From Podarcis liolepis (Eukaryota), in the NCBI GenBank assembly GCA_965112155.1, contig OZ218099.1: a DNA stretch of 64,000 bases. One strand, 5' to 3'. Positions 2,398 through 24,104 of this stretch are shown piece after piece. A model generated the notes under the pieces. It was not told the origin of the DNA and searched no databases. It saw only the letters and a program-made list of their open reading frames with translations. Numbering within the stretch: the first letter of the stretch is position 1; each line of letters starts with the position of its first letter. Both the position numbers and the translations under genes were made by a program.

Positions 2398-2511
2398 GTT
2401 TCAGTGGCACTTACTGTGAGATCAACATCAACGAGTGTGAGAGTAATCCCTGTGTCAATGGTGGCGTCTGTAAGGATATTGTCAATGGATTCAGCTGTAC
2501 CTGTCCCTCCG
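2398..2511 (+). CDS. NOTCH3: NOTCH3 exon (114 bp), EGF repeat [19 protein letters not shown]...TCPS
   Basis: ttgcag|GT acceptor, G|gtaagc donor, phase 1-1, EGF cysteine pattern. Confidence 0.95.
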
Positions 2512-5500
2512 GTAAGCCAAGGGCTTTTTTCAGCAAGGAGATAAATGGCACTGCATCGTTCTCTTACCTGTCCTCCCTGCCTGGCATAGCACAGGTGAAC
2601 TTGAGCCTGTTCCCCTACAGGGCACCTTCTCTGGTCTCTTAAAATAGTTTGCATGTTTGTGTGTATCTGAAACCTGACCAGACCTTACTTTGATAAAGCT
2701 GGTGAGCATCTGCCCTGTTTTTAAGGAGCCTTGCTTTCATCCCTTCTCCTGATGTTAGGAAATGTCTGCCCCTTGTGTGAATTCAGCTGAATTTGAGTCT
2801 CTTAAGTTGAGCTGTGCTGTAGCTTTTCATGAGCTCACACTGCCCCTTGTGCTTCCTCTCATCCCTTGCACTGTGGTACAGTTTGTGTAAGTTTTCTTTG
2901 CTGAGCTAGGAGTCCAGCTTGGGGAATTCTTTGTCAGTGTATGGGATGCAACTGTAGCCCTAAGGAGAGTGTGTTCAGCTCATTCCCCAGGACTTGCTCC
3001 GCTTTTCTGCTACCAAGCGGGTGGGGGGCCCTGTCCTCCATTCAGTTGCTTCCAGGGCTGATTGACAGACAGGCCTATAGCTTGCTGTGTGGGAGCTGGG
3101 ACAATGGTATCTTTGTTCCCCCAGCCTGTCGCACAGGCCCCTGAACCCAATTTACATGTGGGGCAGACACCGCAAAGCCCCCTGTGGAGAGGAGGGGGAG
3201 AGAACATTGAGAGCCTTTGCTATAGGCCTCTGGTGGTAGGGCTGTGCTGTGCAACCAGGATGAAGTTTGAGGACTCCTGTCCCACATAATTTTTCCTCCC
3301 AATGCGAACCTGTTTTCTCTTTATCTGGAGCTTTCTGTCCAAACTATCATTTTATTCGAGGCTTGCTCTAGCTGTGTACCCACTTCAGACACTTAGCTTG
3401 AGAATGAGTATACACTCAATTCTTTTGCCAGCCTAGCTTGTGCCCTTTTCAGACATACTTGTAAAGTCCTCTGTTACCTTTAACAGCTGGGAACTTCCAA
3501 GTACACAAGCTTTTTTCACTCAGCTCTATGTGAAACCCAGCTAGGGAACAAGAGGTGCTATACATATAGTGCCTCCACTCTTCCACTGCAGCACTGAGTG
3601 TCCATTTCCCTGCTCCTTTTTTTATATAGCGCAGATGTTAGTGTAAGATTCTCATCCATCAGAGTGGATAACAACAAGTGTTCTTTCTGTGTGTGTTGTT
3701 TGGATCTTCTCTTGTATATATTGGGTGAAATGCAACACGTATGTTAATGTTGCCAGATTGAGTGCATGTTCCTCATTTTGTTGGTCCATCTGGTTTGTTT
3801 GACTACTTTTTCTTTCTGGGTTCAGGCTTCTCAGGCTCCATGTGCCAGATTGACATCGATGAGTGTGCCAGCACACCATGCCAGAATGGTGCAAAGTGTG
3901 TGGACCGGCCCAATGCCTACGAGTGCCGTTGTACAGAAGGTAATTGCACTCTGCAATGAGTTATTGCCTTTCATGCTCTTCTGTGCTGCTGGAGAGGGAA
4001 TTGTTTCAAATTATGAGGATGTTGTGATGACGACTGCACAAGGATTATTAGAATCTGATGCAGTCGAGAGAAAATTTTCCCCAAAACATCCTTTACATCT
4101 GCCTTTCATGGGTGCCATTTTTGAAAAGCCTGGGCTGGGTGTGTTGTGAGCTTTCTTCCCAATCCATGGTCCTTCATCTTTGAGCATCTTTTAGGGAAGG
4201 TGTCAAATCACTTTCTAACTTTGGTATCAAACCTTCAGCAAAATAACTTCTCTATTCTTGATTCCCAGATAGTTGTGAAAGATCAAGATCAAATTGATGC
4301 TTGCGGAGGTTCTGTTTTATTTCCTTTTAGATGACTTTGGTTTAAAGATGAGCACAGAATTTAACACCATGAAATTCCCAAGGAAGATTATTGTGTTCTG
4401 AAACCTAGTGGTGCACAGTGCATGCCACAACACATCATAAAGAGAACTAATATTCCCATGAAGTAAAGGAAATGGACTTGGGAGAGTAGGATTTTTTTTT
4501 AACAGACTGCAAGAAACGCCTACACAGAACGGCTTTTAGGATAAGGGGAAAGGAAGCCAAATTAGTGCACACAGTTCATTCACATTGTGGAATGGAGAAA
4601 GGAGGGTTAGGTTACTCCTCATTTTTTGTTGAGTTTCTTAATTGATGTTTCTAACTTGCTTGATAAACATGAAGTGACATCCCTTCTCAGTTGCTCAGAC
4701 ACTTAAAAAAGGACAGTAGATGCATATCTGATTGGCTTACAAAACAATGACTCTCAGTTTGAAAATTACAGTGTTTTGAACACAAGCAGTTTTAAGTAAA
4801 GGTAAAACAGAGAACTAACAGTAGTTGTGGAAAAAAATAAATGTTTTGCTTGCTACATTTGGGTCTTTGGATGCATCTTTTCAGATAAATAGTAGTTTAG
4901 GAAACACTGGGCTTTTCTAACATATTAGATAAATGTATCTGGATGGACCTAAAAGTTATGAAAATGGAAGGGAGGGGAAAACCTTTCCCCAGTCTGCTGT
5001 GTGCATGAATTGCTATGATGCTGATGCTGATTTCCCTTTTCACTTACAGGTTTTGAGGGGCCTTTGTGTGAAAGGAACATTGACGACTGCTTTCCAGATC
5101 CCTGCCACCATGGCACTTGTGTGGATGGCATTGCTAGTTTCACCTGCACTTGTGCAGCTGGTTACACTGGATACCGCTGTGAGAACCAGATCAATGAGTG
5201 CCACAGCAATCCCTGTCAGCATGGCGGCAAGTGCATTGACCTGGTGAATAAGTACCTGTGCCACTGCTTGCAGGGGACCTCAGGTAGGGCATCCCTCCTC
5301 GCTCTCTTTCTCTGCTTGCTCTCATTCCTTACATCTCCCAGTCCTATCCAGCAGCACCACACTTTTTGGTTATTTTCTTAGAAAAATGTATAGACTGTTT
5401 AATCAGAAAACTCTCGTAAGTTGTATATATAATAAGTTGTTATCAATAAAAACACAAGATAAAAATCAGCAAAGTAAAACACACACACACACACAAAACT

Positions 5501-8500
5501 AAACGAATGCCTGGGAAAACTTGCTGCAATAAAAAAGAACAATATAATGAAGGCACCTGCCTGGTGTCAATAGGCAGGGAATTCGAAAGCACAGGTGCTG
5601 CCATACTAAAAGAGAGATTCACAAATGCAGAGTAAACATTACATGTCACTTATAAAACTCAAGTTTTGCAGATCAAAGCAGCAAAATAGGCATGTATGGG
5701 GCAAATCAATCCCCCCAACAAACTAGATATAAGCTGTTAAGGGCTTTTTATATGTGAATACTAAGCTTATTTTAAGCTGTCTGCTTTGCGTGCATCTAGT
5801 TTGTGTGATGTCAGCTGGCCGGCTGCCAAGCACGTAAAGCTGCAATCGCACAAGTTAAATGTGTGCAAATTGTGAGTCTCCTGTGCTGCTGTTGCCAAGC
5901 TATCCTGGTCCAGTTATGGGTCACAGCTGTTGCACCAGCAGAAGCTGGGAAAAGGCTCTCTTAGCCACTGAGCACACCTGGACCTCCAGTGACAAAACTG
6001 GATTCAGAAGCACCTCCAGGCTGTGTACCTGCTACGCTGGAGTGCAGGAAATCCTCTCCAGGGCAGGAAAGGAGATCAAGAAGGAGCAAGGTTGCACTCT
6101 TGATCAAAATCATCCCATCAGGCCAGCCACAGCTGGAACGGGTCTCGATAATCTGTACTTGCCACAACCTTCTTGACCACCTTCCCCCCAAAAAGTGAGT
6201 GCCTGCAACTGGTCAGTAGTTAGTCCAAACTAAAGAGTCAGCTTCTTTGGGAGTGGCCATACCCCTGCCTCTTTCAAGGTGGTAGGGACCATCTCCTTAT
6301 GCAGCGAAGGATTAACCATTTACATAGCTATTGGGCAGAATCCATTGATTATGCATAGGAAGCTATAACAATTTCCATTTCATTGCATCTAAACCTACTT
6401 GCACCAGTTCTTTCCACTCTATACATGTCACTCAGCCAAGACAGGAAAAAAATTTCAAGCTTGCTGTGGGTCCATTTGATGTAGGGCGATTGCATCTTTC
6501 TTCAGGCCTGTGATATATCCTTTTCTCCAAGGTGCCAATTGTGAGATCAACTTCGATGACTGTGCCAGCAACCCCTGTGATTATGGCATCTGCCGCGATG
6601 GCATCAATCGTTATGACTGCATCTGCAAACCTGGCTTCACAGGTGATGGCTGGGAGAATGAATTGCTGGTCGGGAATGGGGCAGAAGTAGGGGGAATTGA
6701 AGAGGGTCAGAGTCAACAGCTACAGCTTTAATCAAGAGAGAATACCATGGCAGAATCTACAAGTGTTTGGCTTTGCAGGCAGAGCTTGAGGTAGCATTGC
6801 TCAATAGATGCTATAGGATTTAATCCATGCCTGGTGAAGGGGACAAAGCTGGATGAAAGCAGCAAGAAGTTTCTTCTTGGCCACTCTGTTGCTGAGCAGT
6901 CCTTTCTCCCACTTAGGTCCCCTGTGCAACGTGGAGATTAATGAATGCGCCTCCAACCCCTGTAAGAATGGTGGCACCTGTGTGGATGGTGAAGACGGCT
7001 TCTCTTGCCTTTGCCCCGAGGGATTCCATGATCCACATTGCTATTCAGAAGTGGACGAGTGCAGCAGCAGCCCATGTGTGCATGGCACATGTCACGACAA
7101 CATCAATGGGTGAGAACTGATTACCCCAGTGCATGAACTGCTGCAGCAGGAGTAGGCAGGCTTTGCTCCTATTGTTCCCATGAGGTGGCTCTGAAGACAG
7201 GAGTGGATTAAGTCACTTCCTACAGGCCAGTCAAATGGGCTAACAATGGGTGGTGCTTCTTGGAGGGTGTAAGAAAGCTTTCCCTCTTCATCCTTGCTTT
7301 CCCCCCTTCTTTCCTCTACAGGTACCAGTGTAAGTGTGAGCCAGGCTGGGCTGGCACCAACTGTGATGTGAACCACAACGAGTGTGAATCCAACCCATGC
7401 CAGCATGGAGGGACGTGCACTGACTATGTCAATGGCTATCGTTGCAAGTGCAAAGAAGGCTTTCAGGGTATGCGTCTCTATAGCTTCCTTGCCTTGCTTT
7501 TGTTGCCCGAACTTTACACCATGCTCAACCTCTGTCTAGCTCTTCTGTAGCCCAAGATACATATCTCACCCACATACTGTTTTTCATCTCTTGCCATCTC
7601 TGGATAATACTCTGCCTGTTGTCCAAAGTTATGCCTTCTATGTAACCTTCAGTGTTTGAGCCATCTAGATCTATGAGGGATTTGTAGGTATCTGAACCCA
7701 GCTTTCCCCCAGTTCCATTTTCTGGTCCTTCATGGGAGCTGATGTTGGTTGGTGGCATTACAAGTGGGAGAAAGATTCATCTTCAGGGATATCTGTGTTC
7801 ATGGGGACCTTAATACTTATCTGGTTCTTCTGCAGGGACCTACTGCCAGACCAACATAAATGACTGTGCCTCCAACCCTTGCCTCAACCAGGGCACCTGC
7901 ACTGATGGCATTGCCAGCTATACCTGCATCTGTGACTTGCCTTACACTGGTGAGCTTTGTGGGCGGTGGGGAACACCTGAACATCTTCTGCAAAACTTAA
8001 TTCTTGTTAAGGGACTTGATCTAGTGAAGGGACTTGTATGCAAACCCCATGCCAGGATTTCAGTTTGGAAGGGAGGGATTAATAAGCAGTAATTGTTTGT
8101 ACTGAGTGCCATGTTAGAAATTCATATTCTGCATTTTAGCCATTCATGGATAAGTAATGCCAATAATGACTAAAGGACAATGGTGTGATAGTTAGGCCAC
8201 AAATAATGGATGGAGAATATTGCATGTGTCTGTTTCTTCCTCCTTAAAAGATAATACAGTCGTACCTCGGAAGTCCAACGGAATTCATTCCGGAAGTCGT
8301 TCGACTTCCAAAACATTTGGAAACCAAGGCACAGCTTCCTATTGGCTGCAGGAAGCTCCTGCAGCCGATCGGAAGCCATGGAAGCCATGTTGGATGTTCA
8401 GGTTCTGAAGAACGTTTGCAAACCAGAACACTCACTTCTGGGTTTGTAGCATTCGGGAGCCAAAACGTTCGACTCGCAAGGCGTTTGTGGTCCAAGGTAC

Positions 8501-11500
8501 GACTGTATGTACTTGGGTGCTCTAAAGGGAGAGTGCTTGGAGAGCTGAAATAGATGTGTGTGGTGTGAGAGAGAGAAAGAAAAAGAGAGACTGAGAAACA
8601 AAATGATAAGGGATGACATGTTGCCTTTACTATGTTTAGTTCTTGGGAATTGCCACTGTGCATGCTGAGTTCAGGCGACAATGTCACAACATGGGTAGGG
8701 AGAAGGATCTGAGTCACTCATCATTTGGTGATGTCACAGGCATTATCCAATAGATGCCTTTGGTATTTGTGCAACTTCCATTCTACAAGTCACTTTAAAT
8801 TGCAACACCATCTGCTTTCTGCAAACCACATTTTTAAAGCAGCAATATGTCATGGTTAGGGAGCCTGGAGATGGGTATAAACAAAAGTGCTTCCTCAAAG
8901 AAAGACATCTGGATCCATGCAACAAATGACTGGCAGCTAAACATTTGTTACTCTATAAACTGACTAACTGGGAAAGCTCTTGAATTAACTTTATTATATA
9001 TACCTTATGTATAAAGTATAATTCCCACTGACATTACTTTGTGGCTAGACATTTGGTCTCTGAACTTGATTTGTATTCCTGTTGAGTTCAAGACATACAT
9101 GTTATTTAGTTCAGAATAAGATGGCTATTAGGCCAGTGGAAATCCAAACAAGTACCCTTATCTATTTCTCTTCCCACAGGCCGGAATTGTGAGAATGTGC
9201 TGGCTCCCTGTTTCCCCAATCCATGTAAGAACAATGGTGTCTGTGACCACACACCGGACTATGAGAGCTTTACCTGTGGTTGTGCACCAGGCTGGCAAGG
9301 TACTCAGACTCATGAGCCACATCCTTCCTGTACTTTTCTGAATATTGTGGCATCTAATCCTATGAGCCTATGTGCCAGTTTTATATTTTAATTTGTTTTA
9401 ATTTTGGGGTGGCTTTTAAATATAAAGGCATTTTTACTAATTTGAGTTTGTATGGCTCACTGTCCTGAGTGTCTTTGGATGGAAATGCGAAAAAGAAATT
9501 TCAGAAGTAAAATTAAATATTTTTACTTGGTTTGACATTCTTGTACTGATATTACTTCACAAATACCTTTACCAGAAGATCTGCCATTCTAATGTGGCAA
9601 ATTATCATTATTCCTGATGGTAATTGTGGCTGGATAATCTAATAATTTTCTTATATCTATGCATTCTGTGTGATTGATTATTTGATAGTAGACACATGCT
9701 TGGGATATTGTTTTGTTGTTTCCTTCATTGTTGTTGGATTTTTGCTTCTCCACATGGTGGATGCAGCAATATGAAAAAGTCAATAGAAGTGGATGGGGGG
9801 GAGGGGGAAAAACAAACAGTAACCATATTTTCTTATCCCCATAGGGCAGCAATGCCAGATTGACATTAATGAATGTGACCAGGACCCATGTCGAAATAGG
9901 GGCACCTGCACCAACACACATGGCAGTTACAGGTGTGCCTGCCGTCCCGGCTACACTGGTACCAACTGTGAGCTGGATATTGATGACTGCAAACCAAGTG
10001 AGTTCATTGAGCACATGGGACAACAGGAAAGAACAACCAAGAATCTGAGATCTTGCTAACTATGTTGGTGAGGCAGTATAGCAAAAAGAACTGGGTGAAA
10101 GCTCTAGGAAGAAGGAGCACTGGTAGGACAGGAAACCTAATAAAGAACTGGAAACTGGGCAGAAAGGTCATTAGGTGACATCTGCCTTTCCAGGCTGGCT
10201 TCCAAGTTCACATTTTGGGAAGTGGCTGTGCCTTGTCATTTGGCTTATGTCTAGAGAATTAAAATGCTAAGACAATTAAATGGTACAGACTAGATGATTT
10301 AAGCAAATTTGCTTTCTTTTACCTAAGCATAATCTGTGTTGCATCACGATTGCTAATTGCAAACTCAGAACTTTGAGTGCCAGTGCTTATGTAGCCAAGA
10401 CAGAACCCTCCATGCATATGAGAGAGGTGTCGGCAGGTTTGGGTGAACCCCAAGTTTTTCGCAGGACTACAAGAAGTTTTGAAGGGGAAACACTCTCTTA
10501 AACAGTCCAACAAGACAGAGTAAGCTTACTGACCATGGAATGCTGACGGATTGTTGTGGGTGGGGTGGGGGGGAAAAACTGGCAGGGGAACAGGAATGCT
10601 TAACATAGCAACAATTGCTTGCAGGTTCCATTTGTACTTCAGACTTTTAAACTTTGCAGAACTTGGATTTCTTTGGCTAGGTATAGAATTGTAGAGTTGG
10701 AAGGGACCATGAGGGTCATCTAGTCCAACCCTATGCAGTACACGAATCTTTTGCCCAACGTGGGGCTTGAACCCAGAACCCTGAGATTAAGAGCCTCATG
10801 CTCTACCGACTGAGCTATTCCAATATAGGCTAGAGCAGTACTAAGAGTAGGTTGTGGACTGTGACTGCAACTGATATTCAGACAGAACTAGATCTTATTT
10901 GGATTGAGATGTTTGAATGTAACATTAACTCCTGTTAATGCCAGTGAAAATTCAACATGCCTGTGCTCCATCCTCAGTCTCTCCTGGATTATGTCCGTGA
11001 CTCTGCATGTGTGAAGTTAAACATGACAAAAGATCTTAGTCTTTTTGTATTGGAGGATGTCGTAGTGAAAGAGTTGAGAGCTTGTCTTGATCCCTCTGAG
11101 TATTCCTATCCCTGCCAACAGATCCTTGCCTGAATGGTGGCTCCTGCCAAGATGGCATCAGTACTTTCATGTGCACCTGCCTGCCAGGCTTCACAGGCAT
11201 ACACTGTGCAACTGAGACCAATGAGTGCCTGAGTAACCCCTGCCGCAATGGCGCCACCTGCACAGACTACGTCAACAGCTACACTTGTACTTGTGCGCCA
11301 GGCTGGGCTGGCCTACACTGTGAGCAGAATGTTCAGGAATGCACCGACAGGTGAGCGGATAGTTTGTCATGAGGAACAGTGACTTATGTCTGCCTATCTT
11401 TTAACTTGTATTACTCAGAGGGCACATTTTGCAGAATGGATAAAGGTAAAGGGACCCCTGACCATTAGGTCCAGTCGTGGCCGACTCTGGGGTTGCGGCG

Positions 11501-14500
11501 TTCATCTCGCTTTATTAGCTGAGGGAGCCAGCGTACAGCTTCTGGGTCATGTGGCCAGCATGACTAAGCTGCTTCTGGTGAACCAGAGCAGCGCATGGAA
11601 ACGCCATTTACCTTCCCGCCAGAGCTGTACCTATTTATCTACTTGCACTTTGATGTGCTTTCGAACTGCTAGGTTGGCAGGAGCAGGGACCGAGCAACAG
11701 GAGCTCACCCCATCACGGGGATTCGAACCACTGACCTTCTGATTGGCAAGTCCTAGGCTCTGTGGTTTAACCCACAGCACCACCCCGGCCCCATTCATAT
11801 GAACAAAGCCAAACAGCACTATATGATAGGAGTTAGTCAAGAGGGTTGGCTTACTGCTGTACAGTTCACATGTTTTATATATTCGAGCTAGTTCCCCACT
11901 GTTTCATGTTTAATAAGGACCCAGAGTTTTCTTCTCTGATTTTTAGAACAAAGTGACTGTCTTATTCTAGTAGCAATGTGCGGAAAGGGCTCTGTTCTAG
12001 AAAACTCTAGATGGACGAATGGTTCAGATGTAGGTAGGATCCTGTTTAAAAGGAGACAGTGTACTCCTGTCCCCTCTTTGCTCCTAACTCCTCTGTCAGT
12101 AAAAACTGATAATTAGTTATTCATATGAACACAAGACTAAGCCTGGGGTTAAGTGCTGGGTGCTATTGGGTGACAAGAGCAAGATCTGAAGTTCCCCTGG
12201 TTGTCAGTTACAGGCAAATCCAATCCAGTTGTAAAGAATGGTCAAATACTGAGTAAGGAGGGAGGCTTATCACACAGTTGCACTTTTCACCTAGAACAGA
12301 AACTTCTGTGTAAGGCAGATGCAAGCCAGCACAACTAGCCAAGTGTTAGCTGGTGGGACAGGCCTAGCCTATGCTGGGTGTCTCTTGGGGTAGATAACCT
12401 CCTTCCTCCTTCCTTTATTCCTGACTCCTGTACTTTTGTTCCGGCAGCTCCTGCTTCAATGGTGGCACATGCTTGGATGGAGTGAATTCGTACACATGCC
12501 ACTGCCGGGCTGGCTTCAAAGGATCCCACTGCCAGCATGAGATTGATGAGTGCCAGTCACAGCCCTGCCTCAATGGTGGCGTATGCCAGGATGGTGTGCA
12601 GTCCTACCGCTGTACCTGTCCTAAGGGCTACACAGGTTCTCAGTGCCAGGTAATCCACCCCAGGCCTCTGTCGAGGTTCAGGGTTTCTCTTGTTAAAGCC
12701 TGAGCCGCTAAGTTTGGATGGAGTTTACATCTTTTCAAAAAAAAGTACATATGCCTTGCAAACAGGCCCCTAGAGTGGTTGCAGTATGGAGACACCTAAT
12801 GGAGATGGATTGGGAAGGCGCCTGGGTTTCGTCATCGTTGGTGGGAGCTGGGTGCTTTTATTTTGCCACAAAATCTCTTGCCTTGTCATGCCCCCTCTAG
12901 ACCCTGCTGGATTTGTGTAGTCGCTCCCCCTGTCAGAATGGTGGCCGCTGTATGCAAACAGGCACTACCTTATCCTGTTCCTGCCCTGGAGGTTGGACTG
13001 GGCGTTACTGCGACATCCCCAATGTTTCTTGTGAAGTGGTGGCCAGGAACCGAGGTAAGGAAACATGCTCCAGGGGCGGTGAAACGGAAGCCCTTCTTCC
13101 TCATTTATTCTGCTATCTGCTTCCTCAGTGACCTTGATGACACATGTTTGTCATCCAGGCTCCCCAGCATTATCAGCTTATGCTCACTGGCAAAGCTGGT
13201 ACAGGACTTCCAGAGTTGACACAGAGAATGTTACTTGCCTTCCGTGATGCGGGGACAATGCCCTTGGGTTCACTGGTGCTCCAATCAATATTTCAGACGG
13301 CTATTCCCAGTGGCGTTGGAAACTAAAAATGCTCAACGTTTGAAGTCAATTTTTCCATGCTTCTAGGGGGCAGAATAAAAGCTGCAAATGTTGTTGCAGA
13401 AGTGGTAGTTCTGTATATGAAACTCTGTAATAATTTCAAAATGGTGTGATAATGGCTGAGGGCAATGGAGAGTTGGTCTGGATTCCCTGGTCCTGCTATG
13501 GTACTGGAGCACGTTGCATGTTCTGTCACAATTTAACCTCTATTATCAAGACTCTAAAGAGGCTTTTTTTTTACATTTTACAGAAATGTAAATTAAAATC
13601 TGACTTAGGAAACATTGGGATATGTTGTGCTTCCCCAATAAAGTGTCCTTTAAATTGAGGTGGGCAATAAAGTTTAGTGCTTGGAGGAAGCCCTTGGGTT
13701 CTGTTCTTATGACCAACTTGCTTGTACAATGTTGCTTCAGTCTTCACTTACCCTGCTTTTAGTCACTTTGTCTAATCATCCTTTGGAAGCAGGAGGGCAG
13801 AATATGTGGCAGTACACAATGTGTAATTTGCTTTTCCGTACAATAGGTGTGACCAAAGAGCAAGTGTGTCATTACGGCGGCCGTTGCGTGGATGCTGGCA
13901 ATACTCACTACTGCATTTGCAAAAAAAGCTACACCGGCAGCTACTGTGAGAGTGAAGTGGACCACTGCCAGTACAACCTGTGTCGAAATGGGGGTACCTG
14001 TCGCAGTTTTGTGGGAGACTACGTCTGTGAGGTGAGGGAGTCCTTGCAGCCAGGAACAGGCCAGGGTTCCTGGTGTCTCTTCAGAACTCTGGGAAACCTG
14101 GTAACATTTAATGATGAGTTGTTGAATGTCCAGTGAACAATTGCAAAATAAGATAAGAAAATGGCACAAATCTGCAACTTATTTTCCCAGTAATTAAAAA
14201 AAAAAAAACAACCACGAAAACCCCTCTATTTTCTTCCAAAGTTTTATTTCGTTGAAATATCGATATGGATTATAATTGTTTTCCCACTACTGCAACCTTC
14301 CTTACTTTCGGTGTCAATTCCTATTCGATGGCTGGTCAGATTGGTTGAACTTCCACCATGTCTTACAAAATCCATACATCTTTAGTTTTATTCTTTGCCA
14401 CATCATTGTTGCATATCAGCAATGAAGTCCATTGTGTTGTTTCTCAAATTCTCTGTAAGAGTTTTTTCTCATCACGCCAGGCACAGCCAAACCCATATTT

Positions 14501-17500
14501 ATATGCCCTTGTGGGGGATGCAGAGAGTTGTGTTATGTGTAGAAAACAGCCTGCCCTACAAAGTAAAATTTACGGTCATTTCTCCACCCATTTTTGCCTT
14601 TGTGGCTCCACCCACCACATGACTACTGGAAGGTTGCTCAGAAGGGAATGTAGCCATCAGACTGGAGAAGGTTCACTATCTATGGTCTAGAGATGTTGAA
14701 GAAGTACAGCATTACACAGGAACCAAACAGAAATGATACACATTTTTTGTTCATCCACAAGAGCTGCAGGTTTTCTAACAACATATGTTAGCCATGATCT
14801 TGTGATACAGTTTCATAATTATGTTTAATGTTTGTTCTTGCTATGTATTTTCCTTCCTTTTTATGAAGCCAGACTGATCTATTTGTATAAATCTTGGAAT
14901 AATTTGCCATAGTCTTATTTGCGCAAAGTCCCATTGAAGTTTAACAATCTCAATTTGGACAAGAAAGAGGATGGTGCAACTTGAAGGAACTTTCCCTTCC
15001 TTATGAAATTGTACTAGTTTTACTTGATTTTACACATCAATAATAGTACAGTTTAACAAACAAAACATAAATTTTAATGGAACCAAGAGCAGGAAACCTT
15101 TTCAAGGATGCAAGGCTTCAGCCTTTCTGGCCCCTTTGTGCTCATTGCTGTTTTGTCTTGTTTGCTTCTCTTCTACTCCAGTGCCCGCTAGGGTTCGAGG
15201 GGAAAAACTGTGAGTATGACATTGATGAGTGTCAGTCACACCCCTGCCAGAATGGAGGGACTTGCATTGATCTTGTTGGCCGCTACATTTGCTCCTGTCC
15301 ACCTGGAACTCTGGGTAAGTGCTCCTTGGTAAAGGGAGACCTTTACCAGTATTACCTGTCGGAGGAAAGTAGCAGACTGGGGAAAGGATTTAAGTTCTTA
15401 TGGCACAGGTTTTTATTGTTGGATTTGCAGTTTTGTTGAAGAATAGTGAAAGGGAGCTCCCAGGCCTCTTTTTGAGGGAGGACAGCTTCAGCAACAGTGC
15501 CCAGGGCAATGGATAGATGGATGTTGACTCACTGTTGGGCACCGTAAAGGGCGAGGAATCTTGTTTTTTCCACAGAGACAATGCAAGGATTGTGAGGAGG
15601 AGGAAGAGGTTTGTCTTCCCTGAGTCTGGATGTTTAATGTGATTGCGTGTTTGTCATCTCTCTAGGTGTCTTGTGTGAAATAAATGAAGATGATTGTGCT
15701 ATGAATCCTGGCTCCCGGGTCCCCAAATGCCTCAACAATGGGACATGTGTGGACAGAGTTGGTGGCTACCGATGCAGCTGCCCACCAGGTTTCACAGGCG
15801 AGCGCTGTGAGGGAGACATCAATGAGTGCCAGGCCAACCATTGCCACCCACGCAACACGCTTGATTGCGTCCAGGAAGCCAGTGACTACCACTGCATTTG
15901 CAAGCCAGGCTACACTGGTGAGTGGCAGTGTGTTCTCTTTTCATGTGGCTGATGTGTGCAAGGGGCAAGGGAGAGTGTGCCCAAAGCGGACCCCAGTGAT
16001 GTGTAGAGGAGCCAGGCTCAAGGGCTGCAAGTAGGAAGACTCTCCCCTGGAAAGAAGTTAGGAGTTCATCTTCAACCAAGTGGGTGGAGGGGAATCCAAC
16101 TGTGCAGCTAAATGCATATTTGTGATCTAAAACAAAGATTGGAATGGTGACTGGGTGAGATGGGCCTCTTTGGCCATTTCAGTGAGCAAATATGAGCTTT
16201 GAGAACTAGTGCTAAGATGCAAGGCCAAATATAGCAGGGTGGTGGTCTTTGGGGCTAGGTTCTGTTGGAATCCATCAGTAATACTCTTGTTTTTCACATC
16301 CTCAGGCCGCCATTGCAAGAACATTGTGAATGCATGTGACTCTCAACCTTGCCAGAATGGTGGGAAGTGTAATCCGGCAGTCAACCTGCCTCTAGGCTAC
16401 ACCTGCCACTGTCCCCGGGTGAGTCCCCTACAACACAGCTGCTTACAGCAAGTGGCTAATGCAACTCCTATACACAAACATTGCAAGGGGCTAGGCGAGG
16501 GAGAGAAAGGAAGACTGCGGTTGGGAGGATTAGGTGGGGGAACCGTTAGGTTGACATGTTGGTGTTGTGCTATGAATGAGTTTCAGTACCTGTTAGGACA
16601 AGGTTTCTGTCTGGGAGGCTTTTTGGAGGTAGAGAGTTTAGTGTCCTCCAATGCAACGCTTGTCATGGAAGGAGTTTCTGCTTGGGAGTGGCAGGAAACA
16701 ATTCTGCTGCATGATCTTGTGGGAATTCTGGTTGTGAAACCTGCAAGAGAAGTTTGATGCACTGCCATAACACAATGCAGAAGTCTAATATTGGATAATA
16801 AGGGGAGATGGTGTTGGTGAATGGTGCCCAGTACTGGAGGATGGTGGGGTGTGGGAAGGTACTTCTTGAGGGCAGGTTATGGGTGCTGGGCCTTGAGATT
16901 TGTGGAGGGAAGAATTTACTCACCAGGCTGAGCGCTTGTAAGAGAGCAGCTATGGTGCCAGAGGCTTTCTGTTGTTAGGCCAGCAGTTGGAGCGATTTGA
17001 GGGCTTGGCCGGCTTTCCAATCCTAACTCTGCTTGTTATTCTTTTCCAGGGTTATTCAGGCATCCGCTGTGAGCGCATGCTCTCCTGCCGGGAACTCTCC
17101 TGCTTCAATGGTGGCAGCTGCCGGACCACAGCGCTGGGTCCTCGCTGCTCCTGCCTGCCTGGGTGGGCTGGACCGGAATGCCGCCTGCATGCCAACAGCA
17201 GCTGTGCCAGCATGCCCTGCCACAATGGGGGTGCTTGCCATGAGACTGCTGACCCCCCTTATTTTCAGTGCCTTTGTCTTGGTGACTACACGGGGTTTCG
17301 CTGCCAGACCCGCACTCTGAAGCTCCCTGAGGTCCACTGCCCGCTGAAGGAGTGTGCTGCAAAGGCCGGGGATTTCTACTGTGACAAGATGTGCAACAGT
17401 CCAGCCTGCCACTGGGATGGCGGTGACTGTTCCCTGCGAGTCGATGATCCCTGGAAGCAGTGCGAGAGCCCCCTGTGCTTGCAGCTCTTCAACAACAGCC

Positions 17501-20500
17501 AGTGTGATGAGATGTGCAACACTGCCGAGTGCCTTTACGACAACTTTGACTGCAAGAACCATGAGTCCAGCTGCAAGTGAGTCCTGCCACTGCCTCTTGA
17601 GTAGGGGAGGCATCTAGTTGTGTATACTGTACCAGAGACCCCTGGAATCAAGGGCCACCCCAACTAAATGAGGAACCAAGTCTTATTTTAGGCAGTGTAG
17701 GGGTGCTTTGCACAAACACGGGTGCTTCCACTGAGACCTATGAATTTATATCTGTCCCTTTGTCCGACACCAAACATGGCAGAGTCTTGGTATTGTTTGC
17801 ATGGATTCCTTCTATGTGTTCCACTTGACTAGCTCTGAGACTTGGCCATGTTAGCTGTGGGGTGTAGGAATCCGCTGCAGACCCATAATGCCTTGTGCCC
17901 TTTCCTCCTTAGGGCTTAACAAGGCACCAGTGAGCTGTATTGGCACAGGGTTGGTTATGACAGGCATGACTCAGTTCCTTCTCCTCCTCCTTCTTCCACA
18001 GCCCTGTCTATGAGAAATACTGCTCAGATCACTTTGCTGATGGGCACTGTGACCAGGGCTGCAACAACGAAGAGTGTGGCTGGGATGGGCTGGACTGTGC
18101 GCTGGAGGTGCCCGAGCGCTTGGCGGACGGCGTTCTGGTCATCACTGTGCTGCTACACCCTGACGAATTGCTCCGCACAAGCACCATCTTCCTACAGAAG
18201 CTGAGTTCCATTTTGAGAACCTCCTTGCGCTTCCGCCGTGACAAGGACGGTAACTTCATGATCAAGCCATATTACGGGTCTGGCAGTCGGACGCCGTATT
18301 ATGGATCTGGCGGTCGGCAACGCAGGGAACTGGAACAAGAGATTATTGGGTGAGTCACACAGAGTTGCTGAAGAAAAACAAGGAACTTTGGGGGTTCAGA
18401 GAGCTGCTTGGTGGTGGTGGTGGTGGGGTTATCGGACCCAGGCCTCAAGGAACATGGAGGGAGGGATATAAGAAGGTCCTGAATTGGAAGGAGAGGTAGT
18501 TGGGCCCAGAGGCTCAGCTAAACTACTTCCAACAGCCTTCACAGAATAGGGCAGCTGTGAAAAACAACAACTGTAGAACTGGCATACAAATCTGAGGGTT
18601 CTGAGGAAATACTAACAAATCCACAAAAACTGTTTTGGAGCTGATAACAGGATTATTTAGTGATAGATTTCCATAACTAGACGGGAATTCATTCAAGCGT
18701 TTTTAGATAACTTTATTATATTATTCAAGAACCGCTTCTGATGTCTAACTGCTTTCTTAGCCAAAGTACCAGAAGGTGGCTAATGAAATAAAAGAAGCAA
18801 GTGAGTGTCTGAGATAGTGGTGGATCTCTGGAAGCTTTAGGTTAATGCCAAGCAAGTGGGTTGCATGCATCGTTAAGAACAAACGGGGTAAATGTGATCT
18901 GCTTAGGAAGAGTCAGCCTGCATTTTGTAAGAAGAGATTGTCCTCCACAAATACATTAGGATTATTAAAGCTGCTGATAGGATCTTGGGTGGTCTTTTCC
19001 TTGATGTGTGTATTTGGAAGTGCCCATTCTAAAATTCAGTGTGTAAAAAGCAACAGACCTTGTTTCCTGCCCCAAAGGATGAATGGGGAGCAGGACCTTT
19101 TGTGGAGCTGGCTGACTTGCCTTGTCCTAGGATTGTGTGTGCTACTAGATAAGGAGTTCTAGGCCCTCGTAACACTTGCTTCTTCCTCCAGGTCTGAGGT
19201 CACTCTTGAGATTGATAACCGACTCTGCTACCAGGCTTCAGACAAGTGCTTCCCTGATGCAGATAGTGCTGCAGACTACCTGGCTGCCCTGTCAGCGGTG
19301 GAGCGCCTAGAGTTCCCATACCCCCTCAAGGCTGTGCGAGGTGAGGGCAGCAGAGGAGTCATTTGCCGGAAGCAGAATTTGACTGGGTTTGGACTTTACA
19401 GGAAGGTCATGACAGGGTCTCCTAATAGGGCGGTATTGTTTCTACAGGTGAAAAGATCAAAGAGGAAGGCGAACTTAAGCTGGTGCCATTGCTGGTGGTG
19501 GCATGCCTGATTCTGCTGGTGATCCTGGTGCTGGGTGTGCTAGTAGCACGGCGCAAAAGAGAGCACAGCACCCTCTGGTTCCCTGAAGGCTTCAGTCTGA
19601 AGAAAGAGAGCAGCAATAAGAACCGGCGTGAGCCTGTGGGTCAGGATGCCCTAGGCATGAAGTAAGAGCCTTTCGTTCACCCAGAATGAAACCCCAGTTC
19701 CTGCAGCAGGTTTCAGCTTCTGCAGGAAATGGTCAGATATCTGTGGCTTGTACTTGCTCCCAATTGTGCTTTAGTTAGCTGATGGAGAACCTTTTCCTTC
19801 ATTTTGTGGTGTGGTGTGGGAAAGAGCAAGAGGGTGTAAGCCCATAGCCTTGGTGTTTGCCCTGCACTACTGTTTGACTTCACTGTGTATCTTTCCCCCT
19901 GCTGCAGGAATATTGGCAAAGGAGAGAGCCTAATACCAGACAGCTCAGAAGACTGGCTGGAAGAATGCCCAGAGGCCAAGCGACTAAAGGTATTCCTTTT
20001 GAGACTTTGCCTGGCTTAAGAAAGGGGATTCCAGCTCCTCACAAGAGCTACCCCACTGCCTCCCCCGCCCTTTCTCTTGGTGTCCGCAGGTATTACTCCC
20101 TGCATCAAACTACTGTGGGCCTGACTCATTAGTGTTTGCAAGCAGCAATGAAGTAGTTTGATGCACTAGGTGAATAGGCGCATATTATGTCTTTCCATAA
20201 TAGCTACAGGCCCGTGTTCATCCTTGCCAGGTGGAGGAGCCAGCCATAGATCGTGAAGACCCTGTGGACTGCCGTCAATGGACACAGCATCACTTGGTGG
20301 CAGCAGACATCCGCATGCCACCATCTATGGCCCTGACGCCACCCCAGGGTGAATTTGATACTGACTGCATGGACGTCAATGTCCGTGGACCAGGTAATTG
20401 GGAATGAGGGCAGCGAGTTGGGTCTGCGAGCTTTTGCAGACAGTGTCTGATGAACAGAATAGATCTGTTACTTCCTGTCTTCTGTAACAAGTCCCAACAT

Positions 20501-23500
20501 GTTTTGTTCTAATCCAGTATGTGGCACATGGGAGAGGAGAAACAGAGCAAATCTTTTAACAAAAGCCAAACACAACAGCAACAACCCTTGTTGGGATCTC
20601 CTTACAGATGGTTTCACTCCACTTATGTTGGCCTCCTTCCGTGGTGGTGGTGAAATGGAGACTGAACTGGCTGAGGAAGAGGAAGCAGATGACTCCTCTG
20701 CCAACATAATCTCGGACCTAATCTGCCAGGGGGCTAACCTGAGTGCCCAGACAGACCGCACAGGTGAAACTGCCCTGCATTTGGCTGCCAGATATGCACG
20801 GGCAGATGCTACCAAGCGCTTGCTGGATGCTGGCGCTGATACCAATGCACAAGACAACACAGGGCGCACACCACTTCATGCTGCCGTGACTGCTGATGCC
20901 CAGGGAGTCTTCCAGGTGGGTCTCACCCAATGGACTAGTGTGGCCTTTTAAATCCTGGACATAAATCCCCTTCCTCTGCCTTGCCCATGTTAACAGCATG
21001 CTCCAGTTCCCGTTTTAAGTGGAGAGCCACTGTGATGGTTACCACCTGGAAGTTATTCGTGTGTTATCCACTCATTACCTCTCTGGGGACAATATGAAAA
21101 GTTAGTTAGCCTGGCTGTACTTTGCATTGATAAGAGTGAATGGGAACCTAAGAACTGTACTTGAGGTGATAGTGTTACTGTGCACACGCTGCCTTGGATG
21201 GTGTGTGTTTTTGGCACCAACCTAACACACCAACATGTTCTGTTGCTAGATCCTGATCCGGAATCGATCTACAGACTTGGATGCCCGAATGGGGGATGGT
21301 TCAACAGCACTGATCCTAGCAGCCAGGCTGGCTGTTGAGGGCATGGTGGAGGAGCTGATTGTCTGCCACGCTGATGTCAACGCTGTGGATGAGATGGGTA
21401 CGTAACCCCCAGAGAGGCTGCGGGGCTGAGTTCTTTTACTTGGCTAGTCTGCGTTATGCTAGACTTCAGCGGGAGGCCTCCTCAGAACTACAACATGCAT
21501 TGCAAATGTATTCCAAATTAATTCCACAAATGCACTTGCTGAACATCCAGTCTGGTTGCCCTGGGCATTTCTCAAGCATCAGCAATTCACTTGGCCATTC
21601 TCCTGACTCTTGCTTCCCTCTCTAAGCTCCTTAGATGCATTCTGATGAGGCTCTGCAAGGCAAGAGCCACTGTCATCATAGAGGCCTGAGTGCCAGAGGT
21701 GGACGGAGCAAAAGGATGGATTACACACGTGACGAGTGTGGGATTATTATTTATCTCTCTCTCGTCACATTCTTGAGAGTCAATAGGACACCCCCTCTCT
21801 CTCTGCTACCTATTTTTTACTAGCTCTTCTTTTTTCAGTCTGCCTATTGAACTGCTGGAAAGGGGACAGAAAACCCTTGCCAGAACTGATTGGGTGCAGA
21901 GGATTTCCCTCTCCAAGCATCCATTGCTGACGTCCCTCTTCCCATACTCTCGCCCCCAGCCAGAGTTCTAAACTATTTGCTTGCAGAGGGCATCCCCTGC
22001 CCTTCCATCATTCCACCCATTTTGCCTTTTCCCATTCCAATCCACCACCCTGCCCTCCTTTCTCCTTCTCCCACCTGCATAAAAATAAGCCAAGATCCAT
22101 GTGTGGCCCTCGTTCCTGATGCATTAAGACAACGCCTTACTGTGTGGAGGGGTATTAAGAGAGTAGGGCATGGTCTTGGTGTGCAGGGTCGAAATGACAG
22201 AAGACCTTCTGGGGAACCTGCTGGTGATTCTGGGGACCCCGTAGCTACTTGACTCTTGCATGGACATTCATCTCCATAACAAAGCAGCTGATTTGCTGAG
22301 AGGACAAATCCAGAGTCTACAGAAGGTCCAGCATTAAAGCACAGAATGAGCAGCAACAGGCGAGGATGGTAGTGAGGAGCAAGGTGGTAGCTTTAGATTG
22401 AGGAGAGTTAGGGGAGCTGATGCAGCAGAATACTTCTAGTGGGATCTGAGACTCTGTATCAAAGAGAGAACTTACAGTAATCCTCATGGTGTCATTCCTC
22501 TCAGGTAAATCAGCCCTGCACTGGGCAGCAGCTGTCAACAATGTGGAGGCCACGATTGCGCTGCTGAAGAATGGAGCCAACAAGGACATGCAGGACAGCA
22601 AAGTAAGTTCTTTATTGCATTTGTTTTTCATGTGATGCTTTAAGTTTCATGTGTCCCCATAACTTGGCAGAATCACATCCGTTGCTGTAGGCTCCTTCTG
22701 ACAGGAGCAGCTCTTTCCATCCCTGTAAATGTCTTTAAGCTAGTCCTGGTGACTCCCCTGCCTGTATATGGTGGGGAGGTTTACAGGGAGGCAAGAAGCT
22801 CATGGCTCCTTTTCTAGAACGCTTTGTAGTATGTGCTCTTCATCACCCTGTCCTCTCTGCGGCAGGAGGAGACACCGCTGTTCCTGGCAGCCCGGGAAGG
22901 CAGTTATGAGGCAGCCAAAATCCTGCTGGATCACTTTGCCAACCGCGAAATCACAGACCACATGGATCGCCTGCCACGCGACGTGGCTCAGGAGCGCTTG
23001 CACCACGACATTGTCCGGCTTCTGGATGACTACAACACCGTGCGCAGCCCACAGGGGGCGTTGCCCGCCGGCCACTCCCTCTCCCCTCTCATGTGCCCTC
23101 CCAATAGCTTCTTGCCCAGCTTGAAGCCCACGCCACAGGGCAAGAAGAGCCGGCGCCCTAGCACCAAGAACGCGACGGCAGGCAGCAGCGCCAGCCTGGC
23201 AAGGGAGAGCAAAGAGGCCAAGGCACGTGCCAAGAAGCTCAACCTGGAGTGCCAAGGCTCTCTCCTGGAGAGCTCTGTCACCCTGTCTCCCGTTGACTCA
23301 CTGGACTCCCCCTATGTGCCCAACCCTGCCTCGCCAGGGGTCTTCCACCCAGCCAACTCCTCCCTGTCAGTGCCCTCCACTCCCATGGTCCATGGCATGA
23401 TGGAGGCGCCCTTTGCTGTCAGTCTGGCACGCCTGAGCGACCTAGGGGATGGCACCCTCCTCTCCATGAACCGCCTCTCAGTGCCACCAGGCCGCATGGG

Positions 23501-24104
23501 GCTCAGCCTGGGCATGGTGAGCCCCGTGGCCATGCCCTTTGATTGGCATGCCCGTGTCCCCACTTCCCAGTGCCAGCCAATCATAGGGGTTGTGCACCCT
23601 GCCGCCTCCCATCCCAACCTGCACCAACCAGGCCAGGCTTTCCCACCAGGGCTGCTTCTGCCCAGCCACATGGCCATGGGGCACAGCTCCCAGGGTCTGC
23701 CCAACTCAGCTCCTCCACAGGCCAAGGAGGCAGCCCAGCCCATGCCCCCGCCAGCTACCACCATGAGAACCAACCAGCCTGTCTCGCCCCAGGAGGCCCA
23801 GGGGGCGCCCCGTGCAGGGCCCCCACAGTACCTAAAGCCCGCAGGGGTGGAGGATTACCCAACACCCCCTTCTCAACACAGCTACACACAGGGGCAGGAC
23901 GCGACCCCCAAGCACTTCCTCCATCCGCCCAGTGAGCACCCCTACCTGACTCCTTCGCCAGAGTCCCCAGAGCAGTGGAGCAGCCCCTCGCCCCACTCCT
24001 TGTCCGACTGGTCTGAATCTACTCCCAGCCCGACTGTCCTGGGGCCCAGCCACACCCAGCTGCCTTCGGTGGAGCCATCCGCTAAGATGCAGGTGTTTGC
24101 ATGA
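2398..24104 (+). CDS. NOTCH3: NOTCH3 (neurogenic locus notch homolog protein 3), 5'-partial multi-exon gene; 26 coding exons in window
   Basis: 26 GT-AG exons with compatible phases summing to 5843 nt (2 nt + 1947 codons including stop). EGF x24, LNR x3, HD, TM, RAM (WFPEGF), ANK, PEST. NOTCH3-diagnostic strings: [73 protein letters not shown]. Confidence 0.97.
3826..3939 (+). CDS. NOTCH3: NOTCH3 exon (114 bp), EGF repeat [19 protein letters not shown]...CTE
   Basis: ttcag acceptor, gtaatt donor, phase 1-1. Confidence 0.95.
5050..5283 (+). CDS. NOTCH3: NOTCH3 exon (234 bp), two EGF repeats
   Basis: ttacag acceptor, gtaggg donor; [14 protein letters not shown]...CLQGTS. Confidence 0.95.
6532..6642 (+). 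CDS. NOTCH3: NOTCH3 exon (111 bp), EGF repeat
   Basis: ctccaag acceptor, gtgatg donor; [16 protein letters not shown]...KPGFT. Confidence 0.93.
6917..7109 (+). CDS. NOTCH3: NOTCH3 exon (193 bp), EGF repeats
   Basis: acttag acceptor, gtgaga donor; [11 protein letters not shown]...CHDNING. Confidence 0.95.
7322..7467 (+). CDS. NOTCH3: NOTCH3 exon (146 bp), EGF repeats
   Basis: ctacag acceptor, gtatgc donor; [11 protein letters not shown]...CKEGFQ. Confidence 0.95.
7836..7949 (+). CDS. NOTCH3: NOTCH3 exon (114 bp), extra EGF repeat equivalent to NOTCH1/2 EGF21; not in the ORF track
   Basis: ttcttctgcag acceptor, gtgagc donor, phase 1-1; [38 protein letters not shown]. Confidence 0.93.
8257..8505. 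mobile_element. Tc1/mariner-type MITE
   Basis: TA|CAGTCGTACCT...AGGTACGACTG|TA terminal inverted repeats with TA target duplication. Confidence 0.9.
9180..9299 (+). CDS. NOTCH3: NOTCH3 exon (120 bp), EGF repeat
   Basis: cccacag acceptor, gtactc donor; [16 protein letters not shown]...APGWQ. Confidence 0.95.
9845..9997 (+). CDS. NOTCH3: NOTCH3 exon (153 bp), EGF repeat
   Basis: ccatag acceptor, gtgagt donor; [16 protein letters not shown]...IDDCKP. Confidence 0.95.
10683..10817 (-). mobile_element. SINE with tRNA-Lys(CTT)-derived head and CR1-type 3' tail
   Basis: Minus strand TAGCTCAGTCGGTAGAGCATGAGGCTCTTAATCTCAGGGTTCTGGGTTCAAGCCCCACGTTGGGC followed by ggttggactagatgaccct...cccttccaactctacaattcta; lacks the 5' acceptor-stem strand. 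Confidence 0.8.
11122..11350 (+). CDS. NOTCH3: NOTCH3 exon (229 bp), EGF repeats
   Basis: caacag acceptor, gtgagc donor; [12 protein letters not shown]...NVQECTD. Confidence 0.95.
11441..11791 (-). mobile_element. Sauria SINE, near full length
   Basis: aaaggtaaagggacccctgaccattaggtccagtc tail; gtacctatttatctacttgcac core; ggattcgaacc B-box. Confidence 0.9.
12448..12649 (+). CDS. NOTCH3: NOTCH3 exon (202 bp), EGF repeats
   Basis: cggcag acceptor, gtaatc donor; [11 protein letters not shown]...GSQCQ. Confidence 0.95.
12901..13054 (+). CDS. NOTCH3: NOTCH3 exon (154 bp), EGF repeat
   Basis: ctctag acceptor, gtaagg donor; [11 protein letters not shown]...EVVARNR. Confidence 0.95.
13847..14031 (+). 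CDS. NOTCH3: NOTCH3 exon (185 bp), EGF repeats
   Basis: caatag acceptor, gtgagg donor; [12 protein letters not shown]...DYVCE. Confidence 0.95.
15182..15314 (+). CDS. NOTCH3: NOTCH3 exon (133 bp), EGF repeat
   Basis: ctccag acceptor, gtaagt donor; [10 protein letters not shown]...CPPGTL. Confidence 0.95.
15666..15917 (+). CDS. NOTCH3: NOTCH3 exon (252 bp), two EGF repeats
   Basis: ctctag acceptor, gtgagt donor; [11 protein letters not shown]...CKPGYT. Confidence 0.95.
16306..16418 (+). CDS. NOTCH3: NOTCH3 exon (113 bp), EGF repeat
   Basis: cctcag acceptor, gtgagt donor; [11 protein letters not shown]...CHCPR. Confidence 0.95.
17050..17576 (+). CDS. NOTCH3: NOTCH3 exon (527 bp), last two EGF repeats plus LNR-A and LNR-B
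   Basis: ttccag acceptor, gtgagt donor; [21 protein letters not shown]. Confidence 0.96.
18002..18349 (+). CDS. NOTCH3: NOTCH3 exon (348 bp), LNR-C, HD-N and S1 furin site (RQRR)
   Basis: ccacag acceptor, gtgagt donor; [14 protein letters not shown]...CGWDGLDC...[12 protein letters not shown]. Confidence 0.96.
19192..19340 (+). CDS. NOTCH3: NOTCH3 exon (149 bp), HD-C
   Basis: ctccag acceptor, gtgagg donor; [12 protein letters not shown]...FPYPLKAVR. Confidence 0.95.
19448..19661 (+). CDS. NOTCH3: NOTCH3 exon (214 bp), transmembrane helix and RAM
   Basis: ctacag acceptor, gtaaga donor; [38 protein letters not shown]. Confidence 0.96.
19908..19989 (+). CDS. NOTCH3: NOTCH3 exon (82 bp), RAM linker/NLS
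   Basis: ctgcag acceptor, gtattc donor; NIGKGESL...CPEAKRLK. Confidence 0.94.
20231..20393 (+). CDS. NOTCH3: NOTCH3 exon (163 bp)
   Basis: tgccag acceptor, gtaatt donor; VEEP...[12 protein letters not shown]...DVNVRGP. Confidence 0.95.
20608..20915 (+). CDS. NOTCH3: NOTCH3 exon (308 bp), ankyrin repeats
   Basis: ttacag acceptor, gtgggt donor; [10 protein letters not shown]...ADAQGVFQ. Confidence 0.96.
21250..21397 (+). CDS. NOTCH3: NOTCH3 exon (148 bp), ankyrin repeats
   Basis: tgctag acceptor, gtacgt donor; [13 protein letters not shown]...NAVDEM. Confidence 0.95.
22505..22602 (+). CDS. NOTCH3: NOTCH3 exon (98 bp), ankyrin repeat
   Basis: tctcag acceptor, gtaagt donor; [13 protein letters not shown]...KDMQDSK. 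Confidence 0.95.
22866..24104 (+). CDS. NOTCH3: NOTCH3 terminal coding exon: last ankyrin repeats, NLS, TAD-like region, PEST
   Basis: cggcag acceptor; [13 protein letters not shown]...[27 protein letters not shown]...KMQVFA*. Confidence 0.97.
   Translation, partial: EETPLFLAAREGSYEAAKILLDHFANREITDHMDRLPRDVAQERLHHDIVRLLDDYNTVRSPQGALPAGHSLSPLMCPPNSFLPSLKPTPQGKKSRRPSTKNATAGSSASLARESKEAKARAKKLNLECQGSLLESSVTLSPVDSLDSPYVPNPASPGVFHPANSSLSVPSTPMVHGMMEAPFAVSLARLSDLGDGTLLSMNRLSVPPGRMGLSLGMVSPVAMPFDWHARVPTSQCQPIIGVVHPAASHPNLHQPGQAFPPGLLLPSHMAMGHSSQGLPNSAPPQAKEAAQPMPPPATTMRTNQPVSPQEAQGAPRAGPPQYLKPAGVEDYPTPPSQHSYTQGQDATPKHFLHPPSEHPYLTPSPESPEQWSSPSPHSLSDWSESTPSPTVLGPSHTQLPSVEPSAKMQVFA

Follow-up and report, generated by a model that had tools for sequence, protein, structure and literature searches.

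A conserved, spliced EGF21-equivalent exon in lizard NOTCH3, likely lost on the line to placental mammals

The NOTCH3 gene of Podarcis liolepis carries a conserved, spliced exon that encodes the equivalent of EGF repeat 21 of NOTCH1. Our reading, to which we give a probability of about 0.9, is that this exon is ancestral and that a single, whole-exon loss likely occurred on the line to placentals. The interest is modest and lies in the dating of a known gap; the exon itself is real, was correctly identified in a preliminary description of this DNA, and is ancestral. That human and mouse NOTCH3 lack EGF21 is textbook knowledge, and the original mouse report is said to be that of Lardelli in 1994.

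The exon and the gene around it

The window, i.e. the whole stretch of 64,000 nt that was analyzed (G000:C2:42594001-42658000), contains 26 exons of NOTCH3 with 24 complete EGF repeats. The features referred to below are listed with their positions in the window.

2398..24104, + strand: NOTCH3 exons 9-34 (26 exons), encoding EGF12-35, LNR/HD, TM, RAM, ANK and PEST
7322..7467, + strand: upstream exon 14, 146 bp, with C1-C5 of the NOTCH1-EGF20 equivalent
7468..7835, + strand: GT-AG intron, 368 bp; RNA support of 20, 24 and 5 reads and 1 contig
7836..7949, + strand: NOTCH3 exon 15 (the unlocated exon 1 being counted), 114 bp, phase 1-1
7950..9179, + strand: GT-AG intron, 1230 bp; RNA support of 16, 51 and 5 reads and 1 contig
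9180..9299, + strand: downstream exon 16, 120 bp, which completes the EGF21 equivalent (C6) and begins the EGF22 equivalent (C1-C5)
22866..24104, + strand: last coding exon, with the end of ANK, the C-terminal tail and PEST

Exons 2-8 are situated on the same contig upstream of the window, while exon 1 (signal peptide) is unlocated. All of exons 3-34 (32 exons) have AG/GT ends, and when joined they make 2339 codons with zero internal stops. Exon 2, detected by tblastn ~17.7 kb upstream, supplies EGF1 and brings the total to 35 EGF repeats, compared to 34 in human. Apart from the unlocated exon 1, the complete Notch architecture (EGF array, LNR, HD, TM, RAM, ANK and PEST) was found in a single open frame. 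Exon 14 is as long (146 bp) as the matching exon in NOTCH1 of the same lizard genome. The human gene has 33 exons and 34 EGF repeats (PMC7372551); together with these totals, our gene model confirmed the earlier count of 26 exons and 24 EGF repeats in the window against 25 and 23 in human.

For exon 15, we found again the length, the phase and both splice sites, an AG at 7834-7835 behind a pyrimidine tract and the donor GTGAGC at 7950, and we reproduced the translation given in the preliminary description. The exon was described there as the EGF21-equivalent exon. The identity was right, but the exon is not one complete repeat: of its six cysteines, one (C6) closes lizard EGF19 and the other five (C1-C5) belong to lizard EGF20, i.e. 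the exon spans the end of one repeat and most cysteines of the next. Here lizard EGF19 is the equivalent of NOTCH1 EGF20, and lizard EGF20 that of NOTCH1 EGF21. The O-fucose consensus is C2-x4-T-C3, and this motif is found in the exon 15 translation. The O-glucose motif C1-x-S-x-P-C2 (consensus taken from PMC7922208) is found there too, so that both glycosylation motifs named earlier were seen again. A calcium-binding type start had also been claimed; the motif is present and agrees with the strict consensus D/N-x-D/N-E/Q...D/N...Y/F (PMC7922208) at every position except one, where Asp replaces Glu/Gln. Mole-rat NOTCH1 EGF24 carries the same Asp at this position, and human NOTCH1 EGF24 binds calcium tightly (PMC12979247). 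In one frog NOTCH3, the calcium motif of the EGF21 equivalent is gone.

The assignment of the gene to NOTCH3 is supported by a tree of the RAM-ANK region (36 rows, quick IQ-TREE run with SH-aLRT only, no bootstrap, NOTCH4 not included). The protein encoded in the window fell into a clade of 17 rows together with 16/16 NOTCH3 rows (SH-aLRT 99), and not with NOTCH1/2; its nearest row was tuatara at 94%. The best database matches of the last coding exon were turtle and tuatara NOTCH3 (72%). NOTCH1 of this lizard genome is located on contig C21, not on contig C2, and its repeat 21 matches by eye a Lacerta NOTCH1 record. Another multi-EGF gene on C21 (G000:C21:49973001-49983000), which is not NOTCH1, gives a weak third match to exon 15.

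The intron after exon 15 contains a MITE-like element (8254-8508) that has 27-nt terminal inverted repeats, is flanked on each side by TA and can form a hairpin internally; RNA reads from many other copies stack on it. The next gene, on the + strand, has a GC-rich start at about position 47820 of the window. Its first residues presumably resemble CAMSAP3, and the beginning of this gene had no match in PDB. ILVBL/HACL2, which we take to be the neighbor of NOTCH3 in human, was not detected by tblastn in the window or within 100 kb upstream.

Identity, distribution and splicing of the repeat

The proposed equivalence to EGF21 was upheld by similarity as well as by position. The lizard repeat was identical to repeat 21 of mole-rat NOTCH1 at 27/38 positions, compared to 21/38 for the next-best repeat, and lizard EGF13-21 map in order onto NOTCH1 14-22 (out-of-order best matches, as happen among similar repeats, were seen in 5/29 repeats tested). 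In PDB, exon 15 matched best to NOTCH1 structures, namely repeat two of 9B3N and repeat one of 9B3G; these appear to be the EGF20-24 and EGF21-23 structures, respectively, of PMC12979247. The exon 15 peptide had 33/37 identities with NOTCH3 of tuatara, 31-32/37 with three turtles and 31/37 with lungfish and sturgeon, compared to 26-28/37 for nine NOTCH1 records and 19-26/37 for seven NOTCH2 records. Within NOTCH2, the shark, ray and mammal sequences had 23-26/37. For the NOTCH2 models of a tortoise (P0121) and a crocodile (P0139), the best match to the exon was only 19-20/37 and came from another repeat; these two models may lack EGF21 or be broken there.

The distribution was counted over named records, with unnamed Logan records left out. 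The pattern used for a direct join of EGF20 to EGF22 was built on placental sequence, and non-mammal records without the repeat were judged by eye. The repeat was present in 26 of 36 named non-mammal NOTCH3 records, which is 23 of 28 species; carriers include stingray, sturgeon, teleosts, lungfish, four frogs, tuatara and four turtles. The remaining 5/28 species are represented by broken models only, missing several exons or half the repeat (the Chelonia, Scleropages, Sphaeramia and Terrapene models are without several exons, and that of S. grahami has the second half only). One model from the carp family joins EGF20 to the middle of EGF22, and two other models of the same species carry the repeat. 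In placentals, the repeat was found in 0/18 records and 0/10 species. Of the 18 records, 10, covering 7 species (tenrec, three rodents, rabbit and two cattle), show a direct EGF20-EGF22 join; the other 3 of the 10 species are uninformative at this join. Overall, 10/36 non-mammal and 8/18 placental records are uninformative, being automated models with missing exons.

These numbers agree with a loss on the mammalian side, as was suggested earlier. Two parts of the preliminary description have to be reworded, though. Its statement that mammalian NOTCH3 lacks the EGF21 equivalent holds for the placentals and should read "placental at least". The lizard gene does keep the exon, but was presented as special for it, while retention is general in non-mammals. 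On the compared sequences, the lizard state is ordinary and ancestral, common to fish, frogs, lungfish and turtles. Indeed, the presence of EGF21 in non-mammals is already visible in public annotated proteins, and the lizard is unremarkable among them.

The extent of the gap was seen from the placental exon that comes directly after the EGF20 exon. In 6/6 records this exon aligned to lizard exon 16, its orthologue, with 18-19 identities and scores of 97-117, compared to 9-11 identities and scores of 30-49 for lizard exon 15. Placental sequence is of the exon-14 type up to the junction and of the exon-16 type from there on; thus, the exon ends bracket the placental gap, and the whole-exon extent proposed earlier stands in the alignment to lizard.

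Splicing was judged from four runs of unspecified tissue: three raw RNA runs of one related species, taken from two studies, and an assembled run of the lizard species itself, presumably RNA. Of each raw run, 6-12% was sampled. Reads were mapped to window positions 6400-10100, where they supported 5 of the 31 modelled introns, and junctions were listed at a threshold of 3 reads from 2 starts and 1%. Both flanking junctions of exon 15 are read-supported, with 49 reads for 7467>7836 and 72 for 7949>9180 over the three related-species runs, a depth comparable to that of three neighboring introns. A 5456-nt contig of the same species crosses six consecutive exons, exon 15 among them. The skip junction 7467>9180 was not listed in any of the four runs at the above threshold, so the earlier suggestion of alternative skipping in the lizard was not borne out. 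A symmetric exon with six cysteines could be skipped tolerably, and exon 15 as a cassette, left out of a sizeable share of lizard transcripts, would produce 35- and 34-repeat isoforms. With inclusion junctions as deep as those of the neighbors and the room for skipping reduced to below roughly 5-15% per run or to tissues outside the sample, we regard a cassette exon as very improbable.

Still less credible, to the point of being almost negligible, is a misassignment of one kind or another: that placentals kept EGF21 and lost EGF22 or carry a hybrid, that EGF21 came back into the lizard gene from NOTCH1, or that the gene is NOTCH1/2. The placental exon after EGF20 is indeed equal to lizard exon 15 in length (37 residues), and the lizard exon is identical to the lizard NOTCH1 exon at 83/114 DNA positions, gapless over the 114 bp. 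However, at either end the placental exon matches lizard exon 16. Also, just 20/37 third codon positions are identical between the two lizard exons and the peptide is nearer to turtle, lungfish and sturgeon NOTCH3 than to any NOTCH1; therefore, the exon was inherited rather than copied recently from NOTCH1. The third version is contradicted by the placement in the RAM-ANK tree and by NOTCH1 being on a separate contig.

Dating and manner of the loss

Human NOTCH3 is described as lacking repeat 21 and parts of repeats 2 and 3 (PMC7603621). A preprint on 113 mammals (10.1101/2025.09.28.678708) counts, for almost every species, 204 cysteines in the extracellular part (34 x 6); its main text makes no mention of marsupials or monotremes, and its species list may include marsupials. 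Our protein, cluster and representative searches retrieved no full-length human NOTCH3 record, and the absence in human is taken from reviews and from ten other placentals. The same kinds of searches found no monotreme NOTCH3. For marsupials, they yielded just two records, a fragment from Gracilinanus in which EGF repeats are absent and an opossum model that is broken (P0370). In open full text, we found no printed statement of a 35-repeat non-mammalian NOTCH3 or of a loss on the mammalian line; subscription papers may contain one.

The opossum model shows EGF20, then junk, then EGF23. It has no EGF21 sequence (the best match to the exon, 19/37, was to another repeat), and since most of EGF22 is missing as well, it is uninformative for dating the loss of EGF21. 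Its residues 546-622 are intermediate in character: the calcium start of the EGF19 equivalent is lost, as in placentals, and that of the EGF20 equivalent is kept, as in reptiles.

The segment corresponding to NOTCH1 EGF2/3 has a different date. Exon 3 (143 bp, on G000:C2 and ~5.3-4.6 kb before the window starts) leads straight to a repeat of the NOTCH1-EGF4 type; lizard EGF2 corresponds to NOTCH1 EGF2 and lizard EGF3 to NOTCH1 EGF4, with the NOTCH1 EGF2/3 segment absent, as it is in the placental orthologue. Frog, turtle and carp records have this absence in common, which makes it far older than the loss of EGF21. The two missing repeats would then have two dates, before the split of bony fish and tetrapods for EGF2/3 and on the mammalian line for EGF21.

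We observed that the repeats around the gap are diverged in placentals, with 16-19 of 37-39 residues identical to lizard compared to 27-32 of 37-40 for lungfish. The divergence is wider than this spot, several later placental repeats being also near 50%. In the placental equivalents of EGF19 and EGF20, calcium-type starts are absent. Two frogs (P0108 and P0242) lost the calcium-type starts in the EGF18-20 equivalents, independently of placentals, and kept EGF21. The region thus appears to have been relaxed more than once, and a neutral loss fits as well as an adaptive one.

A single loss of the whole exon would have been tolerated owing to the symmetry of the exon (114 bp, phase 1-1) and its content of exactly six cysteines. 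With exon 14 spliced directly to exon 16, the frame would be kept and one correctly spaced fusion repeat would result, with C1-C5 from EGF20 and C6 from EGF21. How early this happened, and by what route, allows for alternatives. At slightly below even odds, the loss was specific to placentals (eutherians), with marsupials and/or monotremes keeping the exon. The opossum keeps the ancestral calcium-type start of the EGF20 equivalent, and this repeat is identical to lizard at 26/33 residues compared to 18-19/37 for placentals, which places at least part of the placental remodelling of the region after the divergence of marsupials. On the other hand, the calcium start of the EGF19 equivalent is already gone in opossum, and the model, without EGF21 and with EGF22 mostly missing, does not speak either way on the exon itself. 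Somewhat less probable, and offered tentatively, is a loss in which the exon was not physically deleted: its splice sites decayed and it eroded in place, possibly with a phase of skipping in early mammals. Decay of splice sites would give a gap on both exon ends equally well. Also, the placental repeats flanking the site are much more diverged from lizard than EGF8-10 (36-38 of 38-40 identical), which suggests relaxed constraint around it. Nothing direct speaks against decay, the lizard runs without skipping saying nothing about early mammals.

An adaptive version, which we find unlikely, is that the placental stalk was rebuilt, the EGF21 hinge and the two preceding calcium motifs being dropped so that a calcium-tuned joint became calcium-independent. 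If so, placental NOTCH3 would have three non-calcium repeats in a row; the cis/trans response to ligands, background activation or aggregation of the ectodomain could shift, and fish and reptile NOTCH3 would differ mechanically from the protein affected in CADASIL.

Whichever way the exon disappeared, "34 repeats, no EGF21" fits placental NOTCH3 and not NOTCH3 in general, which corrects a common generalization. Past EGF19, repeat numbers are one lower in placental NOTCH3 than in that of lizard, frog and fish, and this matters for mapping CADASIL variants onto fish, frog and reptile models.

Comparison with known systems

NOTCH3 of the other non-mammals (tuatara P0003, turtles P0002/P0225, the frogs Mixophyes P0242 and Xenopus P0108, lungfish P0103, stingray P0097 and teleosts) has the repeat in the same position, with 20-33/37 residues identical. 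Mixophyes shows the 35-repeat layout of the lizard, and there is no architectural difference among the non-mammals. Frog NOTCH3, however, lost the calcium starts of the three repeats before EGF21, while the lizard keeps them. Placental NOTCH3 differs from lizard in having no counterpart of exon 15 and no calcium-type starts in the equivalents of EGF19 and EGF20.

The paralogous EGF21 of human NOTCH1 (9B3N/9B3G) has the O-glucose and O-fucose motifs in common with the lizard repeat, and also a calcium motif, in which the lizard NOTCH3 repeat carries Asp in place of Glu. In NOTCH1 of this lizard genome, repeat 21 ends at the same phase-1 donor as NOTCH3 exon 15. The NOTCH3 repeat also differs from its paralogue by a C-terminal half of the NOTCH3 type. 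By homology, it would be a putative stalk spacer, O-glucosylated, O-fucosylated and calcium-binding, that separates the ligand-binding region from the NRR. In human NOTCH1, EGF21 is a weak calcium binder (KD of about 1.3 mM), and the EGF20-21 interface is flexible at physiological calcium (PMC12979247). By analogy, the lizard NOTCH3 repeat would probably be a weak-calcium flexible joint as well; what placentals lost would correspond to a calcium-dependent hinge in NOTCH1, and any functional consequence could be tested.

The loss of EGF21 can be viewed as a fixed natural case of cysteine-neutral exon removal. Natural skipping of human NOTCH3 exon 9 yields a fusion repeat by the same logic (PMC7372551). 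In this skipping, as in cysteine-corrective exon skipping in CADASIL, a symmetric exon with two half-repeats is taken out and six correctly spaced cysteines remain (PMC7372551). The difference is that exon 9 skipping is a human splice variant that affects the ligand-binding region and reduces signalling (PMC7372551), while the loss of EGF21 is a fixed evolutionary change in the stalk.
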